Source: Opitutales bacterium
Lineage (GTDB): Bacteria > Verrucomicrobiota > Verrucomicrobiia > Opitutales > PNEW01
Direction: 5' to 3'
Assembly (NCBI GenBank): GCA_965219535.1
Contig: CBDCNV010000002.1
Span: 1,500,001 to 1,532,000, forward strand
DNA: 32,000 bases
Each line of letters begins with the position of its first letter. Position 1 is the stretch's first letter. Shown piece by piece: positions 1,337 through 17,960 of the stretch. The translations under genes and the position numbers were made by a program. The notes beneath the pieces were generated by a model. The model made no database searches. It saw nothing but the letters and a program-made list of their open reading frames with translations, and was not told where the DNA came from.

Positions 1337-1465
1337 GTCGAAAGTCGAAGATCGATCAGGGAATAGCCACAAAAAGCACAAAAGGCACAAAACCGAAATT
1401 TGCACCGCAGAGGCGCAGAGGTGGAATTGGAGGAGTCTAAAGTCTAAGGTCGAAAGTCGAAAGTG
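1337..1465. repeat. spacer word arrays: forward GTCGAAR/GTCTAAR heptamers plus a CACAAAARG nonamer run
   Basis: GTCGAAAGTCGAAG lies at 1337-1350. A 3 x 9-nt run CACAAAAAG CACAAAAGG CACAAAACC lies at 1368-1394. GTCTAAA GTCTAAG GTCGAAA GTCGAAA lies at 1435-1462. Confidence 0.9.
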
Positions 1466-1887: not shown

Positions 1888-3531
1888 CTATCTTAAGTTC
1901 GAGAGATCATAGTCGGGGTGGTTTTCGGTGATTGCCTGGAGTTGGATCTGCGTAAAGTTGGGATCGTTGAGGGCTAGCTTGTCAAAATACACGAGCACTT
2001 GTCCCTGCTCCATCAAGGTGTTCTGTAGTTCCTGCACATCGATGTTCCGCGGTGCACACTCATTAACGACCGCCATCGAAGCGGCCTGACCGGCAGCTTG
2101 CCCGAGTGCCATCCAGACGGGCTCCATTCGAAGTGACGAAAAGGCGACGTTCGACGATGAGAGGGAAGCGGTGACAAGAAGGCCGTTAACTTTTTCCGGG
2201 AGGATTGCCCGGTAGGGGATGGTTGCCGGCCGGTTCGGTGACTTCAGTCGATTGCGGAACCAGATGGTACCTTCGAGGAGTTGAAACCCATCGCTCGTTT
2301 CGGCGATGGCGCCTTCATCTTCCCGGTTGCGGCAGGCATGACCGTCAAAGCTGTGTTCACAGATACCGATTGTGTCCTTGTGTATAGGTGGGCGGAGCCG
2401 TCTTTCCGGGGGTTTGGAATCATGTTCGGTTATTGTATACTCGCCCTGTATTCGGCGACCCTGACGCACGTAAAGTTGCCAGGGGAAATGTTCACTATCC
2501 GGGTATTCGTCAGCGGGTAAGCCGAAGCGTGAGACTTCTGTTTGCGGCACGCGGGCTACGGCCGGATCATTTTGCATAAAGTAAAGTAAACCCAGGGTAT
2601 AATCTTTGTATTGCTTGTATAATTTATCTCTGGTTTCCCAGTTCCCGTCCGGCCAGCCGCTGCAGAGTGTCGCGAGATCGATACTGGTTAATGCTTCGAT
2701 GTGTCCGTTGACGCAGTATTTCCTGTTCGCAAGTGGATTGAGCCAGAGGATCTCTGCCAGACAGCGTACCCTTCCGGTTGTGAAGTCGGTAAGTATGCTT
2801 TTGTACATAGGGTAGAAATCATCATACGCATCCGGCTTGGCAATGGGTACGCGTTTTTCCGGATCATCAGTTAGTGTAAGTCGAAAACAGAACGCCTGAA
2901 TAAGGTCACTCGGTTCACCTGTACTCAGCGGGTGTAACTCCTGGTGGTTTTGGCGCCAGTCGTGGTAAATAATGCCGGCGTATTTCTCATCATAGTCCTT
3001 ACGTCCCTCTCGTCCAGCGCGGTAGCTCACTCCCGCTGCGGCAGCGAAATCCCCTTCGTAGGTGCCGTCGATGGCGACCTTGTGCTGAATGGTAATTGTG
3101 TTGTTGTTCGCTCGGTCGAGGTAACGTGAACCGAGGACGGTATCGCCTTCCTTAATTACCTCACTCAGTTCAAGATTTTTGAAAGTCTGAAGATTAGTTT
3201 CCGCGGCAATCATCTGATCGAGAATTTTTTCAGAAACACCGGGCTCCATGAAACGCCCCCCGAGAGTCAGGCTGTACTGGTCAGAACCGGGTCCGTATTG
3301 GGTTTCATAATAGGTGCGAATGTGCGAAAGAAATTCTGTGTGGATGCCACCAAAAGCATTCTCCCGGAGGGAATCGACAAGGCCCAGTCCCGAGGCTGCC
3401 ATGCCCCCAAAATGATTGCCGCGTTCGATGAGGATAGTTTTGCGACCGCAGCGCGCCGATGCGAGGGCGGCGGTAATGCCCGCTACCGTACCCCCGTAGA
3501 CGAGGATTTCGTATGTCTTTTCTTTTTCCAT
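1888..3531 (-). CDS. FAD-dependent oxidoreductase (FAD_oxidored / PF12831-like)
   Basis: 547-aa ORF. The N-terminus has a dinucleotide-binding motif, ILVYGGTVAGITAALASARCGRKTILIERG (GxGxxG followed by an acidic residue). The size and the C-terminal MALGQAAGQAA segment fit this flavoprotein family, recalled from memory. Confidence 0.75.
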   Translation of the reverse strand: MEKEKTYEILVYGGTVAGITAALASARCGRKTILIERGNHFGGMAASGLGLVDSLRENAFGGIHTEFLSHIRTYYETQYGPGSDQYSLTLGGRFMEPGVSEKILDQMIAAETNLQTFKNLELSEVIKEGDTVLGSRYLDRANNNTITIQHKVAIDGTYEGDFAAAAGVSYRAGREGRKDYDEKYAGIIYHDWRQNHQELHPLSTGEPSDLIQAFCFRLTLTDDPEKRVPIAKPDAYDDFYPMYKSILTDFTTGRVRCLAEILWLNPLANRKYCVNGHIEALTSIDLATLCSGWPDGNWETRDKLYKQYKDYTLGLLYFMQNDPAVARVPQTEVSRFGLPADEYPDSEHFPWQLYVRQGRRIQGEYTITEHDSKPPERRLRPPIHKDTIGICEHSFDGHACRNREDEGAIAETSDGFQLLEGTIWFRNRLKSPNRPATIPYRAILPEKVNGLLVTASLSSSNVAFSSLRMEPVWMALGQAAGQAASMAVVNECAPRNIDVQELQNTLMEQGQVLVYFDKLALNDPNFTQIQLQAITENHPDYDLSNLR

Positions 3532-3545
3532 GGATTGTTATGAGA

Positions 3546-3797
3546 GTCTAAGGTCGAAGGTCGAAAGTCAAAGGGGAAGAGAGGGGAGAGAAATCAGTGA
3601 ACAGTGAACAGTGAACAGTGAAGAATAGAGTGAACAGTGATTCATATGCGGATAGACGCGGACGCGATCAGCCGACGCCCGTTGGGCTATGGCCGACAGG
3701 CACCATGCGTCCTCCATTGAATTTTGACGAAGACGATGAGGCAGACGAAGACGAAGGTGGCTTTTAGCGCCTAAAACCTAACACCTAAAACTTAACA
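3546..3797. repeat. spacer mosaic made of five module types
   Basis: Modules in order: GTCTAAG GTCGAAG GTCGAAA GTCAAAG (3546-3573); GTGAACA heptamers (3597-3640); a GCGGACGCG...GGCTATGGCCGAC...GTCCTCCATTG module (3655-3719); TTTTGAC fused to 2 x 18-mer GACGAAGACGAWGRKGSC (3722-3761); reversed heptamers CCTAAAA CCTAACA CCTAAAA CTTAACA (3770-3797). Confidence 0.9.
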
Positions 3798-3800
3798 CTT

Positions 3801-3834
3801 ATGCAATGGCTCAAGTTTCCTTGAGCCAATGCAT
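3801..3834 (-). other. hairpin spanning the stop codon of the epimerase C-terminal ORF
   Basis: ATGCAATGGCTCAAG (3801-3815) pairs with CTTGAGCCAATGCAT (3820-3834): 15-bp arms, one mismatch, 4-nt loop. The stop (3811-3813) lies in one arm. There is no U-tract. Confidence 0.5.
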
Positions 3835-4812
3835 AAAATCGCTGTCGCGCCAGGTGTATTGGGGTTGGTAGCCGAGGAGCTGTGTTGCCTTGGCGTGGGA
3901 GACGAGGGTTGCGTAACCTTCAAGCGATTCCTTGAGCGGCACTTGGGGGTAGTATTGTTCAACGAGTGTTTTTGATTCCGTAGTGCTGCAGGTGTCGTCG
4001 GCGTTGATAAGAAAGACGTCGTGTAAGATCTGTGTATTCTCAATCGCGAGACGGAAGGATTGGATGGCATCTCTTACATCGGTGACTGCCCAGAGCAAAC
4101 TGCGTGGGGAGGGTGGTCCCGGCATCTCTTACATCGGTGACTGCCCAGAGCAAACTGCGTGGGGAGGGTGGTCCCGGCCGTGGCCCCCTTCGGGGTCTTC
4201 GATGACTTTGCGATAGCGTTTCTGCCAGAACTCTTCAACCGAGAGACCTTTAGCCCAACCTGTCTGGACGGCGATACTGGCACCCTCGCGGTCAAGACAC
4301 CAATTGTGATTGATGCGCAGGCAGATAGTCTGTAACCCGTAGAGTTCGGTGTAACGCTTGCACACCTGCTCAGCGAGCAGTTTGCTCATTCCGTATTCGT
4401 CCTGTGGCGCGCAGGGGTGTTCCTCGTCGAGAGGGAGGTATTCAGGGATGATCTCGTTTGACTGAAATGAAAATCCGGTCGCCGCGCCGGATGAGGCGAA
4501 GACAAATTTTTTTATACCCGCGGAAACCGCAGCTTCGATTACGTTCACCGTTCCCATGACATTGAGATGCAGCAGCTCTTTAGTCGTTGCACGACCAGGT
4601 CCCGGCACCGCGGCGAGGTGAATGACAGCATCGTGACCCTGGCAAGCGGACTTGAGTCGATCGCGGTCATTAATGTCGCCCTCGATCCAGTCGGCATGAT
4701 CTTCAATTGGTTTGCTGCGGCTGTAGGAGGAAAGAGAGTAGCCATAGCGTTTTAATCCGCGCAGCAGATAGCTGCCAATCACGCCGCTTCCGCCTGTCAC
4801 CATGATTTGCAT
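3811..4812 (-). pseudogene. NAD-dependent epimerase/dehydratase (extended SDR), split into 227-aa and 104-aa ORFs
   Basis: The N-terminal ORF (4129-4812) has the Rossmann motif MVTGGSGVIGSYL and YGMSK (YxxxK). The C-terminal ORF (3811-4125) continues the fold (SLLWAVTDVRDAIQSFRLAIE). The break coincides with a 55-bp tandem duplication. The junction reads ATG TAA GAG ATG, with both ORFs in the same frame. Confidence 0.7.
4066..4178. repeat. perfect 55-bp tandem duplication inside the epimerase gene
   Basis: Segments 4066-4120 and 4121-4175 are identical (GGCATCTCTTACATCGGTGACTGCCCAGAGCAAACTGCGTGGGGAGGGTGGTCCC), and 3 further nt (4176-4178) continue the repeat. Confidence 0.9.
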
Positions 4813-4820
4813 GGGGAATA

Positions 4821-5119
4821 GTCAAAAAGTCATATCAATTGCCGATTTGAGGGATGTCGGGCTTCGCCCTCGGTACGGATTGTCGATTTTCGATTGAAGA
4901 TTAGATAGCCACAAGAGGCACAAAAGACACAAGAAAGAAATTTAACCACGAATGAACACGAATGATTTGAAGGAGTCGAAGGTCGAAAGTCAAAAGGGAA
5001 GAGGGGGGAAGCGCATTCGCGCGTGTTAAGTTTTAGGTGTTAGGTTTTAGTTGAAATATTTAGATGTGCGAAGATGAATAAAACCCTATGCATTCGACTT
5101 TTGACCTTTGACTTTAGAC
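4821..5119. repeat. divergent-gene spacer mosaic bounded by inverted GTC-A-run arrays
   Basis: Modules in order: GTCAAAAAGTCA (4821-4832); a 29-nt module GATGTCGGGCTTCGCCCTCGGTACGGATT (4853-4881); ATAGCCACAAGAGGCACAAAAGACACAAG (about 4904-4932); GTCGAAG GTCGAAA GTCAAAAG (4975-4996); a GCGC hairpin; TTAAGTT TTAGGTG TTAGGTT (5023-5050); reverse arm TTCGAC TTTTGAC CTTTGAC TTTAGAC (5093-5119). Confidence 0.9.
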
Positions 5120-5124
5120 ATTTG

Positions 5125-5146
5125 AAGGTTGCAGACTTGCAACCTT
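5125..5146 (+). promoter_or_regulatory. hairpin/palindrome abutting the AKR start codon
   Basis: AAGGTTGCA (5125-5133), a 4-nt loop GACT, then TGCAACCTT (5138-5146). The ATG at 5147 follows immediately. Confidence 0.45.
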
Positions 5147-6126
5147 ATGGACTATGTGAATTTTGGATCGGCGGGGTTGAAGGTGAGTCGGTTGGCTTTG
5201 GGCCTGGGTTTTCGGGGGCAGAAGAGTGAAGTAGAAGCACAGCGGGTGGTTGAACATGCGATCGAGCGGGGTATTAACCTGCTCGACTGTGCCAATGTCT
5301 ACGGTATGATGGATAATCGCGAAAACAGCGGGGGTTCCGAAATTGTCCTGGGTAAAGCGCTCAAAGGTAAACGCGACGAGGTGGTCATCACTTCAAAAGT
5401 ATGTAGTTCTATCGGACCGGGGCCTAACGATAACGGTCTGTCCCGGTATCATATCCTGCGTGAAGTAGAGCGCTCACTCAAACGACTGGAAACTGATCAT
5501 CTCGATGTCTATCTCGTTCACAGTTTCGACAATAGCAGCCCTCTCGAAGAAACGATGCGGGCCCTGGATGACCTGGTGCACAGTGGAAAAGTACGCTACA
5601 TCGGCTGTTGCAATTTTGCCGCCTGGCAGGTCTGCCGCGCGTTGTGGATTTCGGATGTAAAACATCTCACCCCTTTCATGTGTGTGCAAAACAGTTATAA
5701 CCTGCTCAATCGCAAACTTGAAACTGAGCTGTTCGGTCTGGTGCGGGAGCAGGGTTTGGGTGTAATGGTTTATTCACCGCTCGCGGTGGGGCTTCTCAGC
5801 GGGGACTATATTCCCGGCCAGCCACTGCCCGCAGGTTCACACTGGGACCGTTCCGATCGATCGCTGGATGAACTGTTTCAAGATGCCGGGGGGGAGCGGT
5901 AACCACCCTGATCGACATGGCAAAATAAATCGGAAAGACCCCCGCCCAACTGGCCCTCGCCTGGGTGCTTTCGCAACCCGAAGTAACGGTTGCTATTACC
6001 GGTGGCGACACCATCCAGCACCTCGATGACAATCTCGGTGCGCTCGATATCGAACTGGATGATGCCGTGCGAGAAAAGCTGAATACAGTGTCGGAAGTGT
6101 TTGTTAAAGATGCGTTGGATGTTTGA
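5147..6126 (+). pseudogene. aldo/keto reductase with a frameshift in a G7 tract and an in-frame TAA
   Basis: The gene starts MDYVNFGSAGLKVSRLALG, a typical AKR N-terminus; the track's TTG at 5129 lies in the repeat arm. The frame breaks at GGGGGGG (5888-5894), and adding one G restores ...DAGGGAVTTLIDMAK. The continuing frame has a TAA at 5926-5928, then IGKTPAQLALAWVLSQPEVTVAITGGDTIQHLDDNLGAL up to the stop at 6124-6126. Confidence 0.75.
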
Positions 6127-6149
6127 TGACGCATCATGCGTCGTCAAAC
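6121..6149 (+). other. 29-bp near-perfect palindrome spanning the AKR stop codon
   Basis: GTTTGATGACGCAT (6121-6134) pairs with ATGCGTCGTCAAAC (6136-6149), with one mismatch in 14. The TGA stop is at 6124-6126. Confidence 0.5.
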
Positions 6150-6525
6150 ATCGAAGGTCAAAAGGGAAGAGCGCCAAAGCGCGTGGTAAGTATCAGGTTT
6201 AAGATGAATAGGTGGAGCGGGCTGTCCCAGCGCGCTTCCGACATCTGATATTCCAGGAGGCTGTCATTATGCAACCGACATTCCCCTGGATTGCCGCGCT
6301 ACGCTCGCAATGACAAAAGGGGAAAAATATACGCGGGTGCGCGCTTTTAGTCGAAGGTCTAAGGTCTAAAGTCGAAAGGGAAGAGCGCTGGAGCGCGATT
6401 TAAGTATTAGGTTTTAGGTGAAGTACGTTAAAAGTCGAAGGTCGTAAGTTTAAAGTGGGGACAACAGCAAACCATGGACGGTGCATCTCATATTCACATT
6501 CGACTTTTGACCTTTGACTTTTGAC
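6143..6525. repeat. spacer mosaic bounded by inverted GTC-A-run arrays
   Basis: Forward units lie at 6143-6164, 6350-6377 (GTCGAAG GTCTAAG GTCTAAA GTCGAAA) and 6434-6454. Also present: GAGCGC-N4-GCGCG hairpins with TTAGG-type words (6169-6203, 6383-6423); a GGTGGAGCGGGCTGTCCCAGCGCGC module (6211-6235); a half copy of the CTCGCAATGACAA hairpin element (6262-6316). The reverse arm TTCGAC TTTTGAC CTTTGAC TTTTGAC is at 6499-6525. Confidence 0.9.
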
Positions 6526-6547
6526 TCCGATTTTAAAAAAATCGGAG
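6525..6547 (+). promoter_or_regulatory. 9-bp hairpin directly upstream of the methyltransferase start codon; includes the only SD-like GGAG
   Basis: CTCCGATTT (6525-6533) pairs with AAATCGGAG (6539-6547). The ATG is at 6550. Confidence 0.45.
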
Positions 6548-6549
6548 CC

Positions 6550-7281
6550 ATGAGCAGAGTAATTTCATTTATATACGGTGTTGTTGGGCATGTGGGGTTC
6601 TTGTTGGTGTTTTTATACCTGGTCGGATTTCTTGCTAATTTTTGTGTTCCAAAGGGTATAGATTCGGGTGAAGTGGGGCCCACTGGTATGGCGCTTTTAA
6701 TTAATATTCTTTTGCTCGCGATATTCGGGATCCAACACAGCGTCATGGCGCGACCGGGTTTCAAGAAGTGGTGGACTGGATTTGTCCCCAACCACATTGA
6801 GCGAAGCACTTATGTGCATATCAGTAATTTGCTCTTCATCCTTCTTTTCTGGTTATGGCAGCCGATGCCGGGAGTGATATGGCATGTTGAGAATGAAATA
6901 GGTTCAATCGTTTTATGGTGCCTCTTTGGGATCGGTTGGTTGATCGTCTTTCTCTCTTCATTGATGATTAATCATTTTGATCTTTTTGGCACGCGCCAGG
7001 TTTACCTGCATCTTCGAAAACAGGAATATACACAACTCGAATTTAAAACCAGGGGGTTCTATAAAATCATCCGTCATCCAATTATGCTGGGATGGATAAT
7101 AGCCTTCTGGGCGACGCCGCATATGTCAGTCGGCCATCTTGTTTATGCTATCGGTACCACGGTATACATTTTAATTGCGATTAAATTTGAGGAGAGAGAT
7201 TTAGTAAATTTCCTTGGTGAAGCCTATGAAAATTACCGCCGTGAAGTATCTATGTTGATACCGATGAAGAAGAAGCGCTAA
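6550..7281 (+). CDS. polytopic membrane methyltransferase, PEMT/ICMT superfamily (MddA-like candidate)
   Basis: The start was moved to the ATG at 6550 (MSRVISFIYG...) because the track's start lies in the repeat arm. The protein has several hydrophobic helices. Its C-terminal signature is RHPIMLGWIIAFWATPHMS...EERDLVNFLGEAYENYRREV, and the QHSVMARPGFKKWW segment resembles methanethiol S-methyltransferase-type proteins as I recall them. Confidence 0.6.
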   Translation: MSRVISFIYGVVGHVGFLLVFLYLVGFLANFCVPKGIDSGEVGPTGMALLINILLLAIFGIQHSVMARPGFKKWWTGFVPNHIERSTYVHISNLLFILLFWLWQPMPGVIWHVENEIGSIVLWCLFGIGWLIVFLSSLMINHFDLFGTRQVYLHLRKQEYTQLEFKTRGFYKIIRHPIMLGWIIAFWATPHMSVGHLVYAIGTTVYILIAIKFEERDLVNFLGEAYENYRREVSMLIPMKKKR

Positions 7282-7287
7282 AGCGCT

Positions 7288-7412
7288 GTCAAAAGTCTAA
7301 GGTCGAAAGTCGAAAGCGGGGAGAATCAGTGAACAGTGGAGTATGCTCTACATATATTCTTTTCTGCATTTGCGCAATATAGCGTTCGACTTTAGACCTT
7401 TGACATTTTGAC
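7288..7412. repeat. spacer bounded by inverted GTC-A-run arrays
   Basis: The forward arm GTCAAAA GTCTAAG GTCGAAA GTCGAAA is at 7288-7315. GTGAACAGTGG is at about 7328-7338. The reverse arm TTCGAC TTTAGAC CTTTGAC ATTTTGAC is at 7385-7412. Confidence 0.9.
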
Positions 7413-7434
7413 TCAGAAATCAGAGATTTCAGCA

Positions 7435-8355
7435 ATGCCTATCGTATTTAAAGATAAGCTATCCCCGTTTCCGGCAATGACGCCGGGGCAGCGGCTCTAC
7501 CTGGACGTCAACGGTTACGTGGTGGTTGAAAACACGTTGACACATGATGAGGTGAATCGTCTGCGTGATGCGATCTACGAATTGAGACAGAAGTTTTTTG
7601 ACGCGGAAGACCCATTGAAGCATTCTATTGGCACATGCAGAGTAAGCGCCGACAAATGCAATAAGTTTTTTGCTAGCTTTCACCGTATTTTAGAAGCGGA
7701 CGAAAGGTTCCTGGAACATTTCATCCACCCGCGGATTGTGAACCTGGCGGAGGAGGCAGTCGGTGGAAAAGTGCTCCTGGAAGAGGCTGCGGTGATCGTC
7801 AATTCCCGCGACCCGGAGGTCGATCCAGATAAACCGTATACATACGGCTTTCACCGGGGAGGGCAACCGGGCTTCGACAGCTATATCTATGACGATCTTT
7901 ATCACTGCACGTTTACCCGCACACTAACTAACCTGACTGACATTGGGCCAGACGATGGGGGCACGGCCTTGATCGCCGGCAGTCACAAGCTCAGCTGCAA
8001 TGAAAATGAAATGGTCGCCGCCGCTTATGAAAATCCCGATTTGATTCACCACGTTGAAGCGCCAGCGGGTTCCACGATGATCATGTATGAAACAACGATT
8101 CATTCCACGAGTCCCATCCGCAGCGACCGCGAGCGAGTGATGATCCTCGGTAGTTACGCGCATCCCAAGCACCAGGTGCAGGGTGGTGCGTGGTCCGACG
8201 CGGTAATTGCGAAAGCCCCAGAGGAATCGCGCGAGATACTCACCGGAAGACCCTTCTGGACATGGCCCGAGCGACATCGCAAGTTAGGCGATGCACCGAA
8301 TAAAGAGAATCAACCTTATGTGGCAAGAATGTGGTCGGTGGATCATGAAGCGTGA
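7435..8355 (+). CDS. PhyH-family Fe(II)/2OG oxygenase-fold protein with H-R-G in place of the H-x-D motif
   Basis: The start was moved to the ATG at 7435 (MPIVFKDK...). PhyH landmarks are present: DDGGTALIAGSHK and the distal TTIHSTSPIRSDRER. The proximal motif reads YGFHRGGQPG (His codon 7852-7854, Gly codon 7858-7860). Confidence 0.75.
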   Translation: MPIVFKDKLSPFPAMTPGQRLYLDVNGYVVVENTLTHDEVNRLRDAIYELRQKFFDAEDPLKHSIGTCRVSADKCNKFFASFHRILEADERFLEHFIHPRIVNLAEEAVGGKVLLEEAAVIVNSRDPEVDPDKPYTYGFHRGGQPGFDSYIYDDLYHCTFTRTLTNLTDIGPDDGGTALIAGSHKLSCNENEMVAAAYENPDLIHHVEAPAGSTMIMYETTIHSTSPIRSDRERVMILGSYAHPKHQVQGGAWSDAVIAKAPEESREILTGRPFWTWPERHRKLGDAPNKENQPYVARMWSVDHEA

Positions 8356-8380
8356 TAGCGCGTATGCGCTTTCACGCTTC
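8347..8380 (+). other. compound hairpin spanning the stop codon
   Basis: GAAGCGTGA (8347-8355, containing the TGA stop) pairs with TCACGCTTC (8372-8380). An inner AGCGC-GTAT-GCGCT stem lies at 8357-8370. The GTCAAAAA array follows directly. Confidence 0.55.
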
Positions 8381-8585
8381 GTCAAAAAGTCAAAAGGTCA
8401 AAAGGTTGGGAGGGGAGATGCGGACGCAACGGAGTGCGTCCCTCCAGAAGATATTTCACATCCACGCATTTCCGTATCATCGCATGCACGCATATGCATA
8501 TTTCCGCTTTGTCGCATCAACTCATACGCGCATTTTCGCGTTTTCGCATATTCCTTTTGACCTTTTGACTTTTTGACCTTTTGAC
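8381..8585. repeat. spacer bounded by pure inverted octamer arrays
   Basis: The forward arm GTCAAAAA GTCAAAAG GTCAAAAG is at 8381-8404. A GGAGGG...GGACGCA-ACGGAG-TGCGTCCCTCC hairpin lies at 8408-8445, and a CGCAT-rich word block at 8461-8553. The reverse arm CTTTTGAC CTTTTGAC TTTTTGAC CTTTTGAC is at 8554-8585. Confidence 0.95.
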
Positions 8586-8602
8586 TTAAACCTATCGGAG
8601 AT

Positions 8603-9448
8603 ATGTTTAATGCGGGGTTACATGCTAAGGAGATCGAGGATCAGGGATATACGCTGGTGCCGGATACGTTGAGCGCGGAACAGATTCGGGATGCGACGGA
8701 AGCGATGCTCGAGGTCTATGAGAGTGAACGCGAAGTCGCGGAAGGCTGCGAAACACAGACTGAACACGCGTATGCTGTTCATCATCTCTTCGCGAAGCAT
8801 CGTTACTTTGAGGAATTTTATCTCAATGAGAAAGTCAACGCGGTCATTCGTCTGGTGCTGGGAGAAGACATGGTTTTGACGGAGACCCATGCGCGGTCGA
8901 TTCTACCGAGCAGCGGTCGGGAGGCAAGGCACGGATTCCAGGTACACGTGGATCGCGAAGCGTTCAGTGTCCTACCTTTTGTGGGCAGCACGCACCATTA
9001 CCCGATGGCGGTCAATAATGCGTGGTTCCTCGTCGATTTTACCGAAAATAATGGCGCCACCGTTCTCTGGCCCAGCTCGCACAAGCTGAATCAGGTGCCG
9101 GACCCGGAAGGGGACTACACAGAAATGCCCCAAAAAAGAGCGCTCGGTCCCGCGGGAACCTGTGTTATCTGGGATGCCTCGGTGTGGCACGCGAGTGGGA
9201 AAAATATTAGCGATCACATCCGACATTCGGTTCTAGGGTTTTATCACCGTCGATGGATACGGGGAACGATCAATGTCGAACATGTCATACCGCCCGAGGT
9301 GCTGGCAAGGATGTCACCGGAGATGCATCGCCTGATCGGTCTCTACGACTGGGCGCCTGAATATTCCGCGGTCAAAAAAATGACCACCGAGGAGATCGCT
9401 GCTTTGACGCCGGAGCAGAGGGATGTGTTGGGGTTTATGATATACTGA
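8603..9448 (+). CDS. PhyH-family Fe(II)/2-oxoglutarate dioxygenase
   Basis: 281-aa ORF with a canonical HxD (FQVHVDRE), NNGATVLWPSSHK, and the distal VWHASGKNISDHIRHS. A GGAG lies 5-8 nt upstream of the ATG. Confidence 0.8.
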   Translation: MFNAGLHAKEIEDQGYTLVPDTLSAEQIRDATEAMLEVYESEREVAEGCETQTEHAYAVHHLFAKHRYFEEFYLNEKVNAVIRLVLGEDMVLTETHARSILPSSGREARHGFQVHVDREAFSVLPFVGSTHHYPMAVNNAWFLVDFTENNGATVLWPSSHKLNQVPDPEGDYTEMPQKRALGPAGTCVIWDASVWHASGKNISDHIRHSVLGFYHRRWIRGTINVEHVIPPEVLARMSPEMHRLIGLYDWAPEYSAVKKMTTEEIAALTPEQRDVLGFMIY

Positions 9449-9474
9449 GAAATACGCAGTAGCGAATTTCTCAG
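9445..9474 (+). other. 9-bp hairpin spanning the stop codon
   Basis: CTGAGAAAT (9445-9453, containing the TGA at 9446-9448) pairs with ATTTCTCAG (9466-9474). The loop is 12 nt. The GTCAAAA array follows after 2 nt. Confidence 0.5.
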
Positions 9475-9476
9475 TA

Positions 9477-9647
9477 GTCAAAAGTCGAAGGACGGGAGAA
9501 GCGAATATGCTTAACTACATTAGAAGCGGATTGTAGAGAGGGGGATGGATGATCGCGGACGCGACGGAGCGAGTCCCTCCATTGGGTGCTCCGCATATAC
9601 GCGTACACTCATAAACGCATTTCCCTTTTGACCTTTTGACCTTTGAC
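9477..9647. repeat. spacer bounded by inverted GTC-A-run arrays
   Basis: The forward arm GTCAAAA GTCGAAG is at 9477-9490. A GCGGACGCGACGGAGCGAGTCCCTCCATTGG module lies at about 9555-9585. The reverse arm CTTTTGAC CTTTTGAC CTTTGAC is at 9625-9647. Confidence 0.9.
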
Positions 9648-9662
9648 TATTTAACTACGGTG

Positions 9663-10379
9663 ATGCGCACCAACAACATACTCACTAAAATGCGTGCCGG
9701 TGAACTCGCTTACGGGTGCGCGCTTAAGTTTCCATCGACAACACTCGCAGAATTGGTCGGCATGGCCGGGATGGACTTCCTTTACCTTGACGGAGAGCAT
9801 GGACCGTTTACTTTAGAAACGATTGAGGACATGTGCAGAGTGGCTGAGCTCTATAATATGACCACGGTTGCCCGAATTCCCGATATCTCATCTCCCACCG
9901 TTCTCGATCACCTTGACAGAGGTATCCTGGGGCTTGAGGGGCCTCATATCACGACCGGTGATGATGCCCGTCAGTTTGTCAACGCCAGCTACTACGCACC
10001 CAAAGGAAATCGCAGCGTCAGCGCCTCTCGCGGGGTCTATTACGGTAAAGAGGGGACAGCGACCGAGTATATGGCTCAAGTCAATTCGCAGATCTACCTG
10101 TTCGGACTTCTTGAAGACATCAAGGTCCTGGACCATATCGACGACATCCTAACGGTGGAAGATATATATTCCTACCACATCGGCACGAACGACCTTGCGC
10201 AAACGATGGACTTGCCCGGTCAACCGAAACATCCGGAGGTGCTGGAAGTTGCCGAGAAGCTTACAACAAAAATTCATGCCGCTGGTCGCAAACTCACCCA
10301 TGAGGTCATGGCAGTCGCCAGGGGGGATGATATATTTTTCGAAGGAGTGAAGGCCTTCAGGGAGCAGAGAAACAGTTAA
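9663..10379 (+). CDS. HpcH/HpaI-family class II (metal-dependent) 2-keto-3-deoxy/4-hydroxy-2-oxoacid aldolase
   Basis: The start was moved to the ATG at 9663 (MRTNNILTKMRAGE...). By-eye alignment to E. coli HpaI keeps the landmarks LDGEHGP (His), TVARIPD (Arg), LLEDIK (Glu) and IGTNDLAQ (Asp). Confidence 0.75.
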   Translation: MRTNNILTKMRAGELAYGCALKFPSTTLAELVGMAGMDFLYLDGEHGPFTLETIEDMCRVAELYNMTTVARIPDISSPTVLDHLDRGILGLEGPHITTGDDARQFVNASYYAPKGNRSVSASRGVYYGKEGTATEYMAQVNSQIYLFGLLEDIKVLDHIDDILTVEDIYSYHIGTNDLAQTMDLPGQPKHPEVLEVAEKLTTKIHAAGRKLTHEVMAVARGDDIFFEGVKAFREQRNS

Positions 10380-10382
10380 CAA

Positions 10383-10455
10383 GCCAAAAAGTCAAAGGAC
10401 GGGAGAAGCGAAAATACGTATATCCGATTTCGACTTTGGACCTGCGACTTTCGAC
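10383..10455. repeat. short convergent-gene spacer that still carries both inverted arms
   Basis: The forward arm GCCAAAAA GTCAAAG is at 10383-10397. The reverse arm TTTCGAC TTTGGAC CTGCGAC TTTCGAC is at 10428-10455. Confidence 0.85.
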
Positions 10456-10461
10456 TCGGTC

Positions 10462-12621
10462 CTAATTCATCTTCCCGTCGCAGCTGATGCGGAAGCAGAT
10501 ACTGGCGGCGCGATCTCTTAACATATTGGCAAATCTAACAGGATGTCCCTCTGAATGAGAGGGCAGCCATGGGTAGATAGGATAACGCGGCATACTTTTG
10601 CGTGGCATATCCTGGTAATAACTCTCCTTTTTTGCGATGGCCGGTAAATTATCTAATGCTTTTTTTACTTCGGCCACAGCATGGTCGATGCGTTTTAATT
10701 GTCCGACATCTGCTTTACCCAACTTTGCCTGTTCTTCGAGGTTGTAACCACGAAAATATATCTCAGCGAGATATCGCTGGATAGTAACATAGTAAAGAAG
10801 CCATTCGGTTCTCTCCATTAATTCCCGGTAATGCGCAGGTCTTAAATTCGTTTTGGCTTTACCGATATGGCTTAACATCTTTCTCACCAAACTGATGGCC
10901 TCCTCCTTTTCAGCAATTATCTCTGTAATATTTTGCGGGGTGGGCGCGAACCTTTCATGACTGTCGGGATACCAGTAGTTGGACCAGTCCCACGTGGTCT
11001 CCCAGGTCCGGGCAAACGAATCCGGATAGCCGCTGTGATCGTTAAAGTTGATTCCTTTAACCGCGAGCGACTTCTCTAACACAGCCTGGGACAGCTTAAG
11101 AGCGGCAATGACAGAGGATGCCGCTTTCGCACCAAAAGTTTTTTCAGCCCATGAACGCCAGATCTCATTCACATCCATCTCAACATTCCAAGCGAGTTTG
11201 GCAAAAGCCTCATAGTTGATGCTGTTAATAATATCTTTCCAGAATATATAGAATGGATCCATCCACCCACCGATTATCGATAAGACCCCGCTCACATTGC
11301 GTTCTGCGCACACGCTCATGCGGTCTTTCAGGTATTGCACCATGGAAGCGGGCACCTTGTTAAAACCGCGGTATTCAGCCGCTAATTGAAACTGGACTAC
11401 TTGTGGATGCTTACCGGTATTTCCGATAATCGGATCGAGGGGAGCGGTGGGCAGGCAGTCGCCCCAGGTATCCATTTTTACGAGCTCTACCTCTGCCGGG
11501 GTCCAATCGATGACCTGCCGAAATACCCACTCGGGTTTATCTCCCGGCAGGTGCCAGGGCTTGCCACTGTCACTTCCCGATGATTTACCCTTTCTCGGCT
11601 TAGCTCCCGAAGTCCAAGTGTGGTAAATAAGTTTCTTTTTATTTTTTTTGATAACTTTGTAGGTCTCGAGGAGCGCTTTTCTAAGTTCAATGGGGAAGGT
11701 ATTCAGACCACTGGCTTTGCATTTCTCACACTGACAGTAAATGCCGTAGCCATTGTGCATTATATCGAGATAGATACCCGTGGCCCCGGGGTAGAGATCA
11801 AATACCTCCTGCACGATGGAGTGCCATACTTTCCAACTCGTTGGATTGGACGGGCAGATATGGGCACTCTCGTAGGAGTCCGGATGATCGACTCCCTTAA
11901 TTTCCGGGTATATTTTATATACGGCTTCGCGCAAATGGTTGGGTATTCCAAGCGCAAAATAGATATAGTAATCGATATCGAAGTTTTTGCGCATTATATC
12001 AAGATGCTGTGCTCGGCGCCGTTCCCTCTGGATGAATTTTTCAGCTCTCGCCCTGTTTTTCACAAGGCGGTAAACTTTGGGTAAACTGTTTTTTAATAGG
12101 ATCGCGTTTGTAGTATAGATCCCCATCATACATGCGTTGTAGCGATGGCGTCTTAAGAGGTCCGCATCCGTCAATTTGAAATCAGGATTCTCCATACCGT
12201 AATCTAAAAACAGACGTGTCTGAAAACTTGGCTCTTCCCGCACACACTTCTTTTGAATGCTGAACCCGGTTCTGGTTATATTAATTGAATCGAGGAAGTG
12301 ATCAGCCGCGTACAAAGTGCCCCTCGGCATTCCTCCAAGCAAAGTAATATTTTCGTCTTCAACGGACATTTCCCAGCCATCGTGTATTGGCATTTTCATC
12401 TTTCGAAGCCGGTCACAGGTTGCGGGGGTGCCGAGAACAATGAGGTTTTTTCGGTAACGCCGGGTGTCACCTTCTTTTACGAGGGGAACTTTTTTACCTG
12501 ACCGGTCTGCAAATTTCTTTTGTATCGCATCCGCGGCGGTAAGCTCCACCCCCTCCGCATTATTGCCCCGCACAATGCAAAGTTCATCAAAGCGAAAATT
12601 TATTTTGGATGATTTTTTCAT
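10462..12621 (-). CDS. glycoside-hydrolase-like protein (GH20b/GH67N-like N-domain plus barrel, DUF4838-like); function uncertain
   Basis: The start was set at the ATG 12621-12619 (MKKSSKINFRF...) because the track's 68-aa extension is translated repeat modules. The N-domain pattern AADAIQKKFADRSGKKVPLV...LIVLGT...ITLLGGMPRGTLYAADHFLD is typical of GH20/67-type accessory domains. A Cys cluster CQCEKCK is present. There is no signal peptide. Confidence 0.45.
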   Translation of the reverse strand: MKKSSKINFRFDELCIVRGNNAEGVELTAADAIQKKFADRSGKKVPLVKEGDTRRYRKNLIVLGTPATCDRLRKMKMPIHDGWEMSVEDENITLLGGMPRGTLYAADHFLDSINITRTGFSIQKKCVREEPSFQTRLFLDYGMENPDFKLTDADLLRRHRYNACMMGIYTTNAILLKNSLPKVYRLVKNRARAEKFIQRERRRAQHLDIMRKNFDIDYYIYFALGIPNHLREAVYKIYPEIKGVDHPDSYESAHICPSNPTSWKVWHSIVQEVFDLYPGATGIYLDIMHNGYGIYCQCEKCKASGLNTFPIELRKALLETYKVIKKNKKKLIYHTWTSGAKPRKGKSSGSDSGKPWHLPGDKPEWVFRQVIDWTPAEVELVKMDTWGDCLPTAPLDPIIGNTGKHPQVVQFQLAAEYRGFNKVPASMVQYLKDRMSVCAERNVSGVLSIIGGWMDPFYIFWKDIINSINYEAFAKLAWNVEMDVNEIWRSWAEKTFGAKAASSVIAALKLSQAVLEKSLAVKGINFNDHSGYPDSFARTWETTWDWSNYWYPDSHERFAPTPQNITEIIAEKEEAISLVRKMLSHIGKAKTNLRPAHYRELMERTEWLLYYVTIQRYLAEIYFRGYNLEEQAKLGKADVGQLKRIDHAVAEVKKALDNLPAIAKKESYYQDMPRKSMPRYPIYPWLPSHSEGHPVRFANMLRDRAASICFRISCDGKMN

Positions 12622-12634
12622 AATTGAATTCAGA

Positions 12635-12853
12635 GTCAAAAGGGTCAAAAAGTCAAAAAGTCTGACGATTGCAGATTGTCGATTGAAGCGGACGCGATCA
12701 GCCGACGCCCTTTGGGCTATGGCCGACCATCCTTCGCTTTCAGCTATGGACGGCAGGGAGGCGGTAGCGCGTCGAACAGAAGATGCTCTGCTTTTCCGTA
12801 TCATCGCAAACATGAAAAAACACATTTCCCTTTTGACTTTTTGACCTTTTGAC
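12635..12853. repeat. divergent-gene spacer bounded by pure inverted octamer arrays
   Basis: The forward arm GTCAAAAGG GTCAAAAA GTCAAAAA is at 12635-12659. GATTGCAGATTGTCGATTGAAG is at 12667-12688, and a GCGGACGCGATCAGCCGACGCCCTTTGGGCTATGGCCGAC module at 12688-12727. The reverse arm CTTTTGAC TTTTTGAC CTTTTGAC is at 12830-12853. Confidence 0.95.
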
Positions 12854-12868
12854 TTTTAAACTAAAGCC

Positions 12869-13726
12869 ATGCTTTCTCAATCACAGATTGAACATTTTAA
12901 CATTTTTGGGGTTCTTATTTTAAGAAATGTTCTAAATGAGGAAGATGTCCGGAAGTTAAACGCGGAGTGGGACGCTAAACTGGCGACGACCACGGATGGG
13001 GGTGCTCATGGGGAAAAAAAATATATAATGAGCTGGCCCAGTCTTGGACCAGATACTCCATTCACGGGATCGCTCTTAGAAGATCCACGGGTAAACAAAA
13101 TCGTAGAGTCGATTTACAAGGATGGGTATTACGGGATTTCCTGCAATTCGAGCAGCAAAGCGGGTGAAACTCCCTGGCATCCCGATTCCAATTTTAAAAA
13201 TCTTCACGGGATAAAGGTGGTCACCTATCTGCAGCCGCTCGATGGCGATAATGGAGCCCTGCGTGTCATTCCCGGATCGCACCGTTACCCCATACATGAC
13301 GAGATCAAGCAAATCAAAATGAGTAAGACTGAATTTGATGGCGTGAAGCGAGAGAAAAAAGTTGATGATGCCAATGCAGAGACAAACGGTGGTCTCGCTA
13401 TTGGTGAAGTCCCCGCTCTTATCTGCTCCACGAATCCGGGAGATATAATTGTTTTTGATTTCAGGGTTTGGCATGCCAGCACCGGTGGAGCCTATGACCG
13501 TCGCCTGTTATCAATGATGTTCTTGAAACAGGCGGCAACGCCGGAAGAAGAGGATGCCATCAACGAGCAAGTGCAATTATCGCAAAAAACTCGAGCAGCT
13601 CGCTCTAAGGAGAGCTTTGCCAAGCCGCAATCGGAGTATCACCCGGATTGGATAGCCAATCCCGATAATGATCCCCGCCGGCAACGCTGGATAGATTGGA
13701 TGAGACTGAAAGGATACTTTCAGTAG
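12869..13726 (+). CDS. PhyH-family Fe(II)/2OG dioxygenase, subfamily shared with 19498-20310 and 20650-21495
   Basis: 285-aa ORF with WHPDS (HxD), DNGALRVIPGSHR and FRVWHASTGGAYDRR. The C-terminal motif WIANPDNDPRRQRWIDW is shared with the two paralogues. Confidence 0.8.
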   Translation: MLSQSQIEHFNIFGVLILRNVLNEEDVRKLNAEWDAKLATTTDGGAHGEKKYIMSWPSLGPDTPFTGSLLEDPRVNKIVESIYKDGYYGISCNSSSKAGETPWHPDSNFKNLHGIKVVTYLQPLDGDNGALRVIPGSHRYPIHDEIKQIKMSKTEFDGVKREKKVDDANAETNGGLAIGEVPALICSTNPGDIIVFDFRVWHASTGGAYDRRLLSMMFLKQAATPEEEDAINEQVQLSQKTRAARSKESFAKPQSEYHPDWIANPDNDPRRQRWIDWMRLKGYFQ

Positions 13727-13914
13727 TCAAAAGGTCAAAAAGTCAAAAGGTCAAAAGGTTGGAGACGCGAACGCGTGTTACCTTATTGTCATTGCGAGGA
13801 GCAATGTGACGAAGCAATCCAGGCGGATTACTATACGCAACCGAATTTCCCTGGATTGCTTCGTTTCGCTCGCAATGACAAAAGGGTGGAACGCGCTGTC
13901 CCTAGCGCGTTAAG
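13726..13914. repeat. left part of a spacer: octamer array plus a 96-bp long hairpin element plus a GGTGGAACGCG module
   Basis: GTCAAAAG GTCAAAAA GTCAAAAG GTCAAAAG lies at 13726-13757 and starts on the last base of the TAG stop. The hairpin TTGTCATTGCGAGG...CCTGGATTGCTTCGTTTCGCTCGCAATGACAA lies at 13786-13881. GGTGGAACGCGCTGTCCCTAGCGCGTT lies at 13885-13911. Confidence 0.9.
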
Positions 13915-13932
13915 ATTTTTTATATTAATTAA

Positions 13933-14667
13933 GGGTCATGCCTAGAACAGAGGGTATCTTAAGCACATATTAAGGATGTTACGATGGAGGTTTTGATGAC
14001 GATGGTTAAAGCGATATTCAGTTTCTTTGAGGTGCAGTTGGAAGGTCCTACGAGAAAGACCTTTGAACTTAGCCAATCGAAGTTTAGCAAAAGCCCAAAA
14101 AGATTCAATCCCGTTAATGTGGGAGTGTCCCTGGGCAAACTCGTTGTCGTTGTGATTGACACGGTAATGCTTCTTATAGCCCAGATCCACGAGGCCGTTG
14201 TAAGCACGCCACCCGTCAGAATAAAGCACACTGTCAAAAGTAACTCTCCCTTGGATCACCGCATGCAGAGCGGCTCTGGAGACATTGCGTACAACCTGGG
14301 TATAGACTTTCCCATTACGCTTGAGCAACCCGAAGACGGGCACTTTCTTGAATGCACCCCGACCTCTTTGCCCTGGAATTCTTTTGCCTCCAAAGTAGGA
14401 CTCATCCATTTCCACCGACCCCCTAAAAGGCGAGGCCTGCGCACATTGCTGCAACAAACGCTCCCGCAACAAGCGCAAATAACGGTTGACCGTGTTACGA
14501 TTCAATCCTGTCAATTGGGCTATCTTCAACGCTTCCATATCCAAGCTAAAACACTTTACTAACTGCCGAAATTTGGCCTCAGAAATTTTTGAACGATGTA
14601 CATACTTATTTCTCATTTGTCTAGAATAGCTTACACATCTGATATGTGTCTATTCTAGGCATGACCC
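13933..14667 (-). mobile_element. IS1595-family (ISXO2-like) insertion sequence, 735 bp
   Basis: The terminal inverted repeats are GGGTCATGCCTAGAACAG (13933-13950) and CTATTCTAGGCATGACCC (14650-14667), matching at 17 of 18 positions. They are flanked by 8-bp TTAATTAA on both sides (13925-13932, 14668-14675), consistent with an 8-bp target duplication. The element holds a single transposase ORF. Confidence 0.8.
13942..14616 (-). CDS. ISXO2-like DDE transposase (IS1595 family)
   Basis: 224-aa ORF. The motif VEMDESYFGGKRIPGQRGRGAFKKVPVFGLLKRNGKVYT is characteristic of ISXO2-like transposases as I recall them. Confidence 0.8.
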   Translation of the reverse strand: MRNKYVHRSKISEAKFRQLVKCFSLDMEALKIAQLTGLNRNTVNRYLRLLRERLLQQCAQASPFRGSVEMDESYFGGKRIPGQRGRGAFKKVPVFGLLKRNGKVYTQVVRNVSRAALHAVIQGRVTFDSVLYSDGWRAYNGLVDLGYKKHYRVNHNDNEFAQGHSHINGIESFWAFAKLRLAKFKGLSRRTFQLHLKETEYRFNHRHQNLHRNILNMCLRYPLF

Positions 14668-14681
14668 TTAATTAATTAAGA

Positions 14682-14883: not shown

Positions 14884-14895
14884 TTATTGTACTTT

Positions 14896-16269: not shown

Positions 16270-16276
16270 GTATAAA

Positions 16277-16440: not shown

Positions 16441-16449
16441 TAGTGGGCG

Positions 16450-17934: not shown

Positions 17935-17951
17935 GTTTTAAGTGTTAGGTT
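17921..17951. repeat. forward TTARGTK heptamer array overlapping the pyk stop
   Basis: TTAGGTG TTAGGTT TTAAGTG TTAGGTT lies at 17924-17951. Confidence 0.9.
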
Positions 17952-17960
17952 GGAGAATTC

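Follow-up and report, generated by a model that had tools for sequence, protein, structure and literature searches.

Mirror-image word arrays and small hairpins in the intergenic spacers of an Opitutales clade, compared with STRR- and REP-type repeats

Arrays of tandem heptamers, the short tandemly repeated repetitive (STRR) sequences, were reportedly described in cyanobacteria by Mazel et al. in 1990, and the STRR1-3 words of heterocystous cyanobacteria are CCCCAGT, TTGGTCA and CAACAGT. Small dispersed repeats (SDR) of 21-27 nt are likewise said to have been described in Nostoc by Elhai et al. in 2008, and Neisseria possesses intergenic mosaic arrays of the dRS3/RS type together with Correia elements. 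Long simple-sequence repeats (SSR) with units of 5-11 nt were treated by Mrazek et al. 2007, as that study is summarised in PMC4679880, and MacGregor 2015 reported TAACTGA intergenic heptamers in marine Beggiatoaceae, Cyanobacteria and Bacteroidetes, for which a translational role was proposed (PMC4679880). Repetitive extragenic palindromic (REP) sequences carry a conserved, unpaired GTAG or CGTC tag as their hallmark; GTAG REPs occur in Opitutus terrae, REPs are found inserted within palindromes, and mosaic intergenic regions of Neisseria are mentioned in the same account (PMC3733652). Here we analyze the intergenic repeats of a 32-kb stretch of DNA (the window) from a marine Opitutales bacterium of the Verrucomicrobiota, including the spacer at 3532-3810, and compare them with these systems.

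The main organizing rule of the window is that one type of array, F, lies on the left and another, R, on the right in each spacer, where F denotes (GTCAAAAG/GTCGAAG/GTCTAAG)n read on the plus strand and R its reverse complement, (CTTTTGAC ...)n. This rule was unstated in an earlier sequence-only reading of the same stretch, which had listed eight module families (numbered 1-8 here after that list) as the vocabulary of the spacers. Because of the F-left/R-right arms, each spacer forms a long quasi-palindrome whose ends touch the adjacent stop or start codons. We consider it probable that the intergenic DNA consists mostly of small non-coding repeats, an ecosystem common to the whole clade, and that this is remodelled by processes acting on the DNA itself. 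In organization the system agrees with those described before (it has tandem heptamers, extragenic palindromes, inverted dimers and mosaics), whereas their sequence-specific hallmarks were not found; the system therefore belongs with the known kinds of repeat, as a clade-wide, fast-evolving relative of STRR and of REP and bacterial interspersed mosaic elements (BIME), and is not a new kind of system. Genes in the window are 90-93% identical in nucleotides to those of the Opitutales metagenome-assembled genome (MAG) OY829953.1, indicating that the window comes from a sister species of that MAG. An origin in Poribacteria, to which the many phytanoyl-CoA dioxygenase genes had pointed at first, was rejected on the strength of this identity. 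Genes outside the window are crude open reading frame (ORF) calls.

Like STRR and long SSR, the repeats described here are tandem 7-8-nt words at many intergenic sites, belong to several often-adjacent families per genome and presumably arise by slippage. Head-to-tail units in the 5-11-nt range were found in the window, where a suggested run of Tandem Repeats Finder returned 66 rows, nearly all in spacers and mostly of period 7, 8, 9, 14, 16 or 18, and in at least 29 blocks of the sister genome. They differ from STRR in their Verrucomicrobiota host, in the matched inverted arms that abut start and stop codons and in the addition of REP-like hairpins. A limited literature search found no description of the strict F...R polarity for STRR, no account of Verrucomicrobiota spacers bracketed by matched word arrays in inverted orientation, and nothing specific on the GTCAAAAG word or on Opitutales/Verrucomicrobia repeats. 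The words also differ, those of the present Opitutales host being GTCAAAAG, GTCGAAG, CAGTGAA, CCTGAAC, GTKTTAR and CACAAAAAG; CAGTGAA is one base off the CAACAGT register of STRR, a resemblance only. The claim that the sequences differ from STRR held for the STRR1-3 words, which were not found here, but not for the dominant array, since GTCAAAAG/GACTTTT arrays are also present in cyanobacterial contigs (GACTTTT/CCTTTTGA arrays in L085 and L087).

The hairpin families resemble REP, REP doublets forming hairpins (REPIN) and BIME of Proteobacteria in being short, GC-rich, extragenic and high-copy, with imperfect palindromes of 20-40 nt in families 7 and 8. Units A and B of family 7 form inverted heterodimers as in REPIN, and, as with REP, the hairpins combine with other motifs into mosaics and are inserted inside other palindromes. 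Their heads are GGTGGA (family 7) and GCGGAC (family 8), however, with no GTAG or CGTC tag; the main component here is tandem word arrays, and no REP-associated tyrosine transposase (RAYT) was found in what was a weak search. Intergenic palindromes joined to other motifs in limited arrangements recall BIME and the Neisseria mosaics, a likeness of organization and not of sequence homology. The dRS3/Correia mosaics likewise draw on few families and include small elements by genes that are bounded by inverted repeats and form hairpins in DNA and RNA, but they show no sequence relation, their units are fixed repeats of 20-150 bp and not tandem 7-8-mers, and in Correia elements the interior is conserved and a TA duplication is known. 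The Nostoc SDR are, like the ~31-nt mini-hairpin described below, very small mobile-looking repeats nested in repeats or hairpins; sequence and phylum differ, and mobility of the mini-hairpin is deduced only from filled versus unfilled hairpin loops. TAACTGA arrays share with those of the window their tandem heptamers a few nt upstream of starts, their Shine-Dalgarno (SD)-poor genomes and their patchy spread across phyla. The word differs, making this the same kind of element but not the same family, and the arrays here are equally common after stops and stand in inverted pairs, whereas nearly all TAACTGA arrays point the same way and just one indirect repeat occurs among them. Two further candidates were rejected: integrons/attC, as the only integrase domain is the rve of IS481, genes lie on both strands and the arms are tandem words and not attC; and clustered regularly interspaced short palindromic repeats (CRISPR), as the units, 7-18 nt long, follow one another directly without spacers, and no Rfam hit was obtained.

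Mirror-image arms at gene boundaries

Between neighboring arrays the order was FR in 16 cases and RF in one (11 and 0 in an earlier count). Arms of 20-40 nt, 75-100% complementary and 56-190 nt apart, were present in at least 11 spacers of the window, and GTKTTAR arrays followed the same left/right polarity as the GTC arrays. Two spacers folded as a whole into one long stem (z = -6.3 and -6.7). The interior of the spacer at 8381-8587 holds a family-8 hairpin and CGCAT 8-mer words, the arms at 16274-16441 stop 7 and 9 nt short of the two start codons, and the interior element of 31625-31743 has the same orientation in the window species and in OY829953.1. The spacer at 3532-3810, flanked by two minus-strand genes (an FAD oxidoreductase and a split NAD-epimerase), is without a GTC R arm and folds with z = -2.2; the linker GGGRAGRG comes after the F array in most spacers.

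F and R arms were more complementary within one spacer than across spacers (permutation p = 0.005, n = 17), and their 7- or 8-nt period agreed in 14 of 16 FR pairs; by direct reading of the window, it agreed in 11/11 spacers as opposed to about half of the array pairs that flank one gene. Arms were equally good in the divergent spacers 4813-5128, 12624-12868, 16282-16449 and 30584-30752, where no single transcript spans both, and G:U-compatible mismatches were not enriched (18 of 56 arm mismatches). Taken together, arm matching by spacer, the good arms of divergent spacers and the lack of a G:U excess argue for a DNA-level cause, with the spacer as a coherent unit.

Three explanations of the arms were rejected. 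Pairing between the 5' and 3' untranslated regions (UTRs) of one gene is incompatible with arm type agreeing within spacers and not across genes, and selection on a single-transcript RNA hairpin with the absence of a G:U-compatible excess and the equally good arms of divergent spacers. As for sigma-70 promoters, TTGAC is a -35 core, but promoter-like sites exceed shuffled sequence only marginally (31 against 21.5 +/- 4.8), and at the appropriate spacing there are no -10 boxes.

Position relative to genes speaks for a different account, which we regard as possible, if rather unlikely, namely that the GTC arrays are primarily cis-elements of expression, with, in gene orientation, (CUUUUGAC)n directly upstream of the start and (GUCAAAAG)n after the stop, the latter marking the 3' end. 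The upstream array would serve as a U-rich leader or standby site independent of SD, or would be bound by ribosomal protein S1, by a Csp-like protein or by another factor. In 25 of 57 cases from the clade as a whole, 7-9 nt separate the start codon from the final GAC of the upstream array; the distances break off sharply below 6-7 nt, and the GAC is usually followed by TA. By direct reading, 17 of about 19 non-insertion sequence (IS) gene 5' ends of the window bear an array. This adjacency is clade-specific, since of 74 arrays in other phyla just 1 lies within 12 nt of a start codon, and the clade is nearly devoid of SD motifs, whose frequency ahead of start codons hardly exceeds that of the control (16% vs 11%). 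Arrays also stay at orthologous gene boundaries while interiors get replaced, and the TAACTGA heptamers of Beggiatoaceae provide a precedent (PMC4679880). Yet the 3' ends, where arrays mostly start within ~10 nt of the stop codon and in some cases overlap it, are as array-rich in the sister genomes as the 5' ends are (32 vs 33 and 12 vs 14; in the window, 5 vs 13). Word type (7- or 8-mer) and copy number vary at orthologous boundaries, some genes have arrays in one species and not in the other, and in related marine contigs with the same hairpins the density of arrays is roughly one tenth of that in the window (0.47 against 5.9 per 10 kb). Moreover, independent 5' and 3' signals do not explain the matching of F and R within a spacer.

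The arrays can also affect gene calling. ORF 30753-31673 continues through the downstream F array before its stop, because the GTCAAAAG words contain no stop codon on that strand, so arrays can inflate predicted C-termini; on the opposite strand, CTTTTGAC gives TGA in all three frames within three words.

Modules, nesting and turnover

All eight module families were recovered where the sequence-only reading had placed them, or a few bases away. We compared pattern counts with 100 dinucleotide-preserving shuffles of the window, and each family was seen 3-36 times against a shuffle expectation of at most 0.4. Observed and expected counts were 9 and 0.00 for two copies of GTRAACA, 5 and 0.00 for two of CCTGAAC, 12 and 0.00 for two of GTKTTAR, 3 and 0.00 for ATAGCCACAARAR, 6 and 0.00 for the 18-mer, 3 and 0.01 for GAGCGC-N4-GCGCG, 6 and 0.00 for GGTGGARCGSGCTG and 3 and 0.27 for GCGGACGCG; pairs of GTC words numbered 32 and 36 against 0.02 and 0.39. 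A single module hit overlapped coding sequence, a GTKTTAR array over the last codons of the pyruvate kinase gene, and the rest were intergenic. No tRNA and no Rfam family was found in the window. Spacer DNA in the window amounts to 5,319 bp, of which ~66% matches repeats in other spacers or related genomes and 39% matches other spacers within the window. These figures bear out the description of the spacers as mosaics in which a small repertoire of tandem words and hairpins recurs. The further notion of a combinatorial grammar is right as to recurring modules, but the combination is not free, given the strict mirror polarity, the fixed composite units and the nesting in loops. The list itself was incomplete: the dominant GTC(N)AAA(G) 7/8-mer arrays had been named only in passing, and the period-8 ATGCG/CGCAT words, which adjoin either arm depending on the spacer, had been omitted.

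Asymmetric modules showed a strand bias. In the window and the OY829953.1 blocks, 10 of 10 GTRAACA ((CAGTRAA)n) arrays and 13 of 13 ATAGCC-(CACAAAAAG)n arrays lay on the strand of positive GC skew, so that the orientation of asymmetric modules may follow the direction of replication; the bias hints at a replication-linked, single-strand process.

Part of the vocabulary consists of fragments of larger units, namely an ~80-bp composite, a REPIN-like heterodimer and a 27-nt hairpin. Families 6 and 3 are real, but together with the GTC array and the GGGAAGAG linker they make up the one composite. Family 7 is also real, but is an inverted dimer of two REP-like units: two inverted ~27-nt units, GGTGGA-CGCGCT-GTCCCT-AGCGCG, stand around an AT-rich loop. 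Its plus/minus pairs ~50 nt apart are common in metagenome loci, where 576 kb contained 120 family-7 matches, and A/B heterodimers occur in the window, OY829953.1 and metagenomes. Family 8 is the 27-nt hairpin GGACGCG-ACGGAG-CGCGTCC-CTCCA, with 94% pairing and one compensatory pair (G-C to A-T) of the stem in 4 of 10 variants. The long forms of families 7 and 8 proved to be the short forms with a mini-hairpin of ~31 nt (CCTGACCGCCATAGCCTTGGCGTCGGCTGG) inserted in the loop, and deeper nestings are present. An IS1595-family element likewise sits within the loop of a REPIN-like dimer, with an 8-bp target duplication, TTAATTAA, as read from the sequence. The proposal that modules transpose thus gained support from one mini-hairpin in the loops of two hairpin families and from 94-96% identical copies at non-orthologous sites. 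The gene between the paired REPINs of metagenome loci L129 and L142 is an ordinary-looking ORF of 579 aa with no sign of a transposase.

An additional small element, MITE-like (MITE, a miniature transposable element with inverted repeats) and ~172 bp long, occupies 1485-1656 of the window, with 29-nt terminal inverted repeats (TIRs; TCAGGTGAAACACGGTGC...) and a central palindrome at 1549-1606. At least 8 more copies, 74-90% identical, lie in OY829953.1 blocks L073, L074 and L020, with one in marine contig L136, and the TIRs fall into two co-varying subfamilies (GAAACACGG / GACTCGCGG).

The vocabulary extends well beyond the window. In a scan of GTDB species genomes, a pattern of three GTCAAAAR words (a 24-mer) matched more than 100 stretches; OY829953.1 contributed at least 29 of them, as separate 8-kb blocks between 1.86 and 4.45 Mb, and a second Opitutales MAG at least 5. 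Most module families recur in the OY829953.1 blocks, and the modules are thus not confined to the window but spread over at least 2.6 Mb of the sister genome. A separate query, a 25-mer of the REP-like unit, returned 71 metagenome stretches, most of them marine and of 41-51% G+C, the majority of which also bear GTC, GTKTTAR, ATAGCC and GTRAACA modules; at these loci, similarity to the window is at paralogue level (70-77%). The earlier suggestion of a genome-specific system therefore falls, as the vocabulary is common to the sister species, to an Opitutales MAG that is less closely related and to 60 or more marine contigs from metagenomes (41-51% G+C), and is clade-wide. The octamer array also occurs in other phyla (Bacteroidota, Phycisphaerae, Acidobacteriota, Nitrospirota, cyanobacteria and others), where it was mostly isolated and STRR-like, one per block, among the matches listed, which for Poribacteria comprise a single isolated array (L010). 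Word cascades, in which period-7/8 arrays morph from word to word (GGACAAAAG -> GTCAAAAG -> GTGAAAAG; GCCGAAAC -> GTCAAAAA), were observed in contigs of Prevotella (L043 1050-1550), Acidobacteriota (L095 2590-2760), Phycisphaerae (L065 1280-1480) and Bacteroidales (L008 1165-1290); those of L043 and L095 have mirrored complementary arrays. A phage link was rejected, as IMG/VR gave only 6 matches to the array pattern.

Related genomes allowed turnover to be read directly. Window positions 6384-19914 are 99.8-99.96% identical to an ENA metagenome contig that encodes the window's pyruvate kinase. A search of metagenomes for further orthologous spacers with a conserved gene-start 23-mer gave 0 matches. 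Five orthologous spacers lie between genes ~91% identical in the window and OY829953.1, and their contents differ; they are accordingly not vertical remnants of one duplicated segment, in agreement with the earlier proposal. Spacer 28438-28548 holds (CAGTRAA)n in the window and a GTCAAAAR array, a family-8 hairpin and CGCAT words in OY829953.1; 29461-29755 has only the ATAGCC-CACAAAAAG block on the left in common; 12624-12868 measures 245 bp in the window against ~690 bp, with other contents, in OY829953.1; and the array by 10462 consists of 7-mers in the window and of 8-mers in OY829953.1. Slippage, also proposed earlier, is supported by the 18-mer array at 14779-14883, which is four units shorter in L001, the two assemblies being 99.9% identical and the difference involving a 5x long-read contig; the other differences between window and L001 are homopolymer errors. 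Finally, the 67-bp interior 30629-30695 of spacer 30584-30752 is inverted in OY829953.1 (L011 5550-5616), being 66/67 identical as the reverse complement and 34/71 forward, a clean inversion that supports the suggested recombination or conversion.

A further explanation is that the spacers are invertons. The F...R arms would then be inverted repeats across which a recombinase or RecA flips a directional promoter between the flanking genes, with phase-variable expression, for example of phytanoyl-CoA dioxygenase (PhyH) paralogues, as the outcome. The 20-40-bp arms around 56-190-bp interiors suit such elements, as does the one between-species inversion of an interior more conserved than its flanking genes; by direct reading, all 4 copies of that interior turn one and the same end towards the 5' end of a PhyH gene, and CGCAT/ATGCG blocks stand by either arm in different spacers. 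We nonetheless find invertons decidedly unlikely. The window has no invertase, nor any recombinase gene apart from IS transposases; arms also bracket spacers with 3' ends only, such as the convergent spacer 10380-10461; and the interior contains no convincing sigma-70 promoter. No polymorphism was seen in consensus contigs: in 8 spacers compared with the near-identical L001, the window showed no difference in orientation, and 27 pairs of 98-100%-identical metagenome contigs were all collinear without inversions, which is weak evidence in that consensus assemblies would hide minority orientations.

Spacers as members of a MITE family appear very improbable. Under that explanation each F...R spacer would be one non-autonomous transposon with the arms as its TIRs, possibly with a TA target duplication, into which later insertions were nested, and it accounts for inverted termini with a conserved outer boundary of TA-GTC...GAC-TA, for the match between the arms of one spacer and for nested insertion as documented for other modules. 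TA precedes the first GTC, however, in only 50 of 128 arrays (39%; T at -2 in 51%, A at -1 in 71%), no internal sequence is shared family-wide beyond other, independent modules (spacer 16282-16449, for example, matches elsewhere in its arms only), and the arms are tandem arrays of variable word number and not a fixed TIR. No IS with these termini was found, the ends of IS1595 and IS481 being unrelated, and insertion of a whole spacer would leave divergent genes promoterless. We give virtually no credence to chance, low-complexity sequence or assembly artefact: short tandem repeats are generally error-prone in assemblies, and the 18-mer difference involves the 5x contig noted above, but this reading is refuted by the excess of all families over shuffled expectation and by the same architecture in independent assemblies (contigs built from long reads at ENA and from short reads at JGI, and two MAGs that are complete or nearly so), as well as opposed by the intergenic location.

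Proposed remodelling at the DNA level

The architecture, its clade-wide distribution, nesting, turnover, one inversion and one copy-number change were observed, whereas the molecular mechanisms (slippage, arm-to-arm templating and loop targeting) and any function are inferred. The favored ecosystem of small repeats would have four components: (a) STRR-like arrays of 7-8-nt words, with GTC(N)AAA(G) dominant, as two inverted arms; (b) REP/REPIN-like GC-rich hairpins; (c) very small hairpins that enter the loops of the latter; and (d) some MITE-like elements. Words would be gained and lost by slipped-strand events, and the two arms of a spacer would recombine with or template each other, which would keep them matched and occasionally flip the interior. 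Hairpin modules would copy and paste, preferring hairpin loops or the center of the palindrome, with the consequence that the oldest arms stay outermost. Arrays could reach ~7 nt from the ATG because the clade hardly uses SD sites. A possible function is structural punctuation of transcripts or DNA, as for REP/BIME, or a U-rich leader for SD-independent initiation.

Several points weigh against this reading. The 32-kb window is all the DNA of its own genome that was examined, and the 2.8 arrays per 10 kb of the sister-genome blocks are a biased density, since the OY829953.1 blocks were picked for containing an array. No transposase, RAYT or recombinase for the modules was found in the window besides IS1595 and IS481, and no RAYT lies beside the REPIN cluster of contig L062; tblastn with an IS200 TnpA query gave no match in ~1.7 Mb, about half of it from this clade, which is a weak test. 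As the arms lie a few bases from the starts even in divergent spacers, all promoter information must lie between them, and start-proximal arms in such spacers are not what an origin that is purely selfish or neutral would obviously predict. The TA that follows the final GAC (39%), like the tight mode at 7-9 nt, could reflect function or a target site, and not neutral filling. Lastly, the inverted interior 30629-30695 is 98.5% identical between species, compared with ~91% for the flanking genes, and this excess conservation suggests recent conversion or selection/strong constraint.

The inverted 7-8-mer arrays could also be read as a clade-specific functional gene-boundary code combined with a shuffling system, which we think unlikely. 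If this were true, (CTTTTGAC)n ... (GTCAAAAG)n would mark the limits of every gene at a fixed distance from start and stop, and the matched arms would be recombination or inversion sites that flip promoter-bearing interiors or whole gene cassettes. Expression would thereby be rewired in expanded paralogue families such as PhyH and the ATP-binding cassette (ABC)-transporter fusions, and the U-rich arm would double as an SD-independent translation leader, amounting to genome-wide punctuation and shuffling built from simple-sequence repeats.

STRR, long SSR and TAACTGA arrays have been known for decades, and the present clade is an unusually regular case, with matched inverted arms at nearly all gene boundaries, near-fixed start and stop distances and an SD-poor genome. 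Its sister genomes stand at a divergence where turnover, inversion and nesting are directly visible. Slippage and templating, loop insertion, invertible spacers and U-rich leaders are testable with existing long-read and metatranscriptome data. In practical terms, the spacers are hot spots for assembly error, gene mis-calling through ORF run-on, and rearrangement in marine Verrucomicrobiota MAGs.

Coordinates and neighboring features

Table 1. Positions of arrays, hairpins, composite units and F...R spacers in the window
Feature	Coordinates	Strand	Remarks
F array, GTCTAAG/GTCGAAG/GTCGAAA/GTCAAAG 7-mers	3546-3574	+	starts 14 nt from start codon of FAD oxidoreductase (1888-3531, minus)
Purine linker GGGGAAGAGAGGGGAGAG	3572-3591	+	
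(CAGTGAA)n heptamers	3595-3640	+	6.9 copies
Long family-8 hairpin, 65 nt	3655-3719	+	GGACGCG...CGCGTCC(C)TCCA with ~31-nt GCCATAGC-type mini-hairpin in loop
Two degenerate units of 18-mer GACGAAGACRAAGAGGCA	3726-3761	+	fused to TTTTGAC
GTKTTAR (TTAGGTG) 7/14-mer array, reversed	3770-3798	-	right spacer edge, by 3' end of gene 3811-4125
~80-bp composite	4968-5058	+	F array, GGGAAGAG, GCGC-N4-GCGC mini-hairpin, GTTAAGTTTTAGGT; from alignment
~80-bp composite, other copies	6140-6212, 6343-6432, 21524-21606, 24938-25012		5 in window in total
REPIN-like heterodimer (family 7)	29526-29629		unit A GGTGGAGCGGGCTGTCCCTAGCACGC; inverted unit B GGTGGAACGCGCTG...CCCTAGCGCG with mini-hairpin insert
Family 7, other copies	6211-6235; 13885-13911 + 14700-14739		second is one dimer split by IS1595
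Family-8 hairpin, short	8420-8446, 9555-9581		
Family-8 hairpin, further expanded	~12688-12780		
IS1595-family element	~13912-14668		transposase 13942-14616; ends GGGTCATGCCTAGAA; within AT-rich loop of REPIN-like dimer
(CAGTGAA)n family, besides 3595-3640	7326-7340, 20398-20412, 28461-28514		always G-rich strand
(CAGTAAA/CAGTGAA)n	28461-28514	+	x7.7
(CCTGAAC)n	20458-20513	+	at least 6.9 copies
ATAGCC + (CACAAAARG)n	1363-1394	+	further copies 4905-4932, 29482-29510; all G-rich strand
GTKTTAR arrays, forward	5023-5050, 6407-6420, 17921-17951		at left edges
GTKTTAR arrays, reverse	1825-1855, 3770-3798		
18-mer GACGAAGACAAAGAGGCA	14779-14883	+	x5.8, units 100% identical
Model F...R spacer	8381-8587		F 8381-8405, R 8553-8587; 25-nt stretch 100% complementary; z = -6.3
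F...R, divergent spacer	30593-30731		F 30593-30628, R 30696-30731; 36 nt, 92% complementary
F...R	16274-16441		F 16274-16313, R 16396-16441; between divergent aminotransferase and pyruvate kinase genes
F...R, divergent spacer	12635-12857		F 12635-12662, R 12829-12857; 95% complementary
F7...R7	4975-5119		F7 4975-4996, R7 5093-5119
F7...R7	6349-6526		F7 6349-6382, R7 6493-6526
F7...R7	7288-7412		F7 7288-7316, R7 7385-7412
F7...R7	19341-19487		F7 19341-19362, R7 19459-19487
F7...R7	21527-21650		F7 21527-21562, R7 21619-21650
F8...R8	24930-25144		F8 24930-24970, R8 25124-25144; interior REPIN-like dimer 25010-25106
F8...R8	31625-31743		F8 31625-31657, R8 31719-31743; interior is copy of 30629-30695 element

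Two genes of the window are interrupted. The NAD-epimerase gene is split into two minus-strand ORFs, 4129-4812 and 3811-4125, and contains a perfect 55-bp tandem duplication (4066-4175), deletion of one copy of which does not give a single ORF; it is a pseudogene or an assembly problem. The aldo/keto reductase gene at 5129-6137, with a frameshift and an internal stop, is likely a pseudogene. Together with the two IS elements and the split epimerase, this gene suggests relaxed selection in the region.

Paralogues are also frequent. Two SBP5-permease fusions of ~1,090 aa lie in the same 32 kb as eight PhyH genes (7408-8355, 8603-9448, 12869-13726, 19498-20310, 20650-21495, 29756-30583, 30753-31673 and 31765-32000). 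Perfect 26-nt palindromes at 20318-20343 and 21502-21527 (CATTTTAATCG-TACG-CGATTAAAATG and TATTTTAATCATGCATGATTAAAATA), each between the array and the start of a PhyH paralogue, may be an operator or a 5'-UTR hairpin. Directly before the ATG of PhyH genes stands a small GC hairpin followed by TTTTT (window 30734-30752 and 31744-31764; L011 5650-5674), which looks like a terminator or a translational element; it reads CCGCGGAAGCGGG in the window and CCTGCGGAAGCAGG in OY829953.1, with compensatory changes between the two species.

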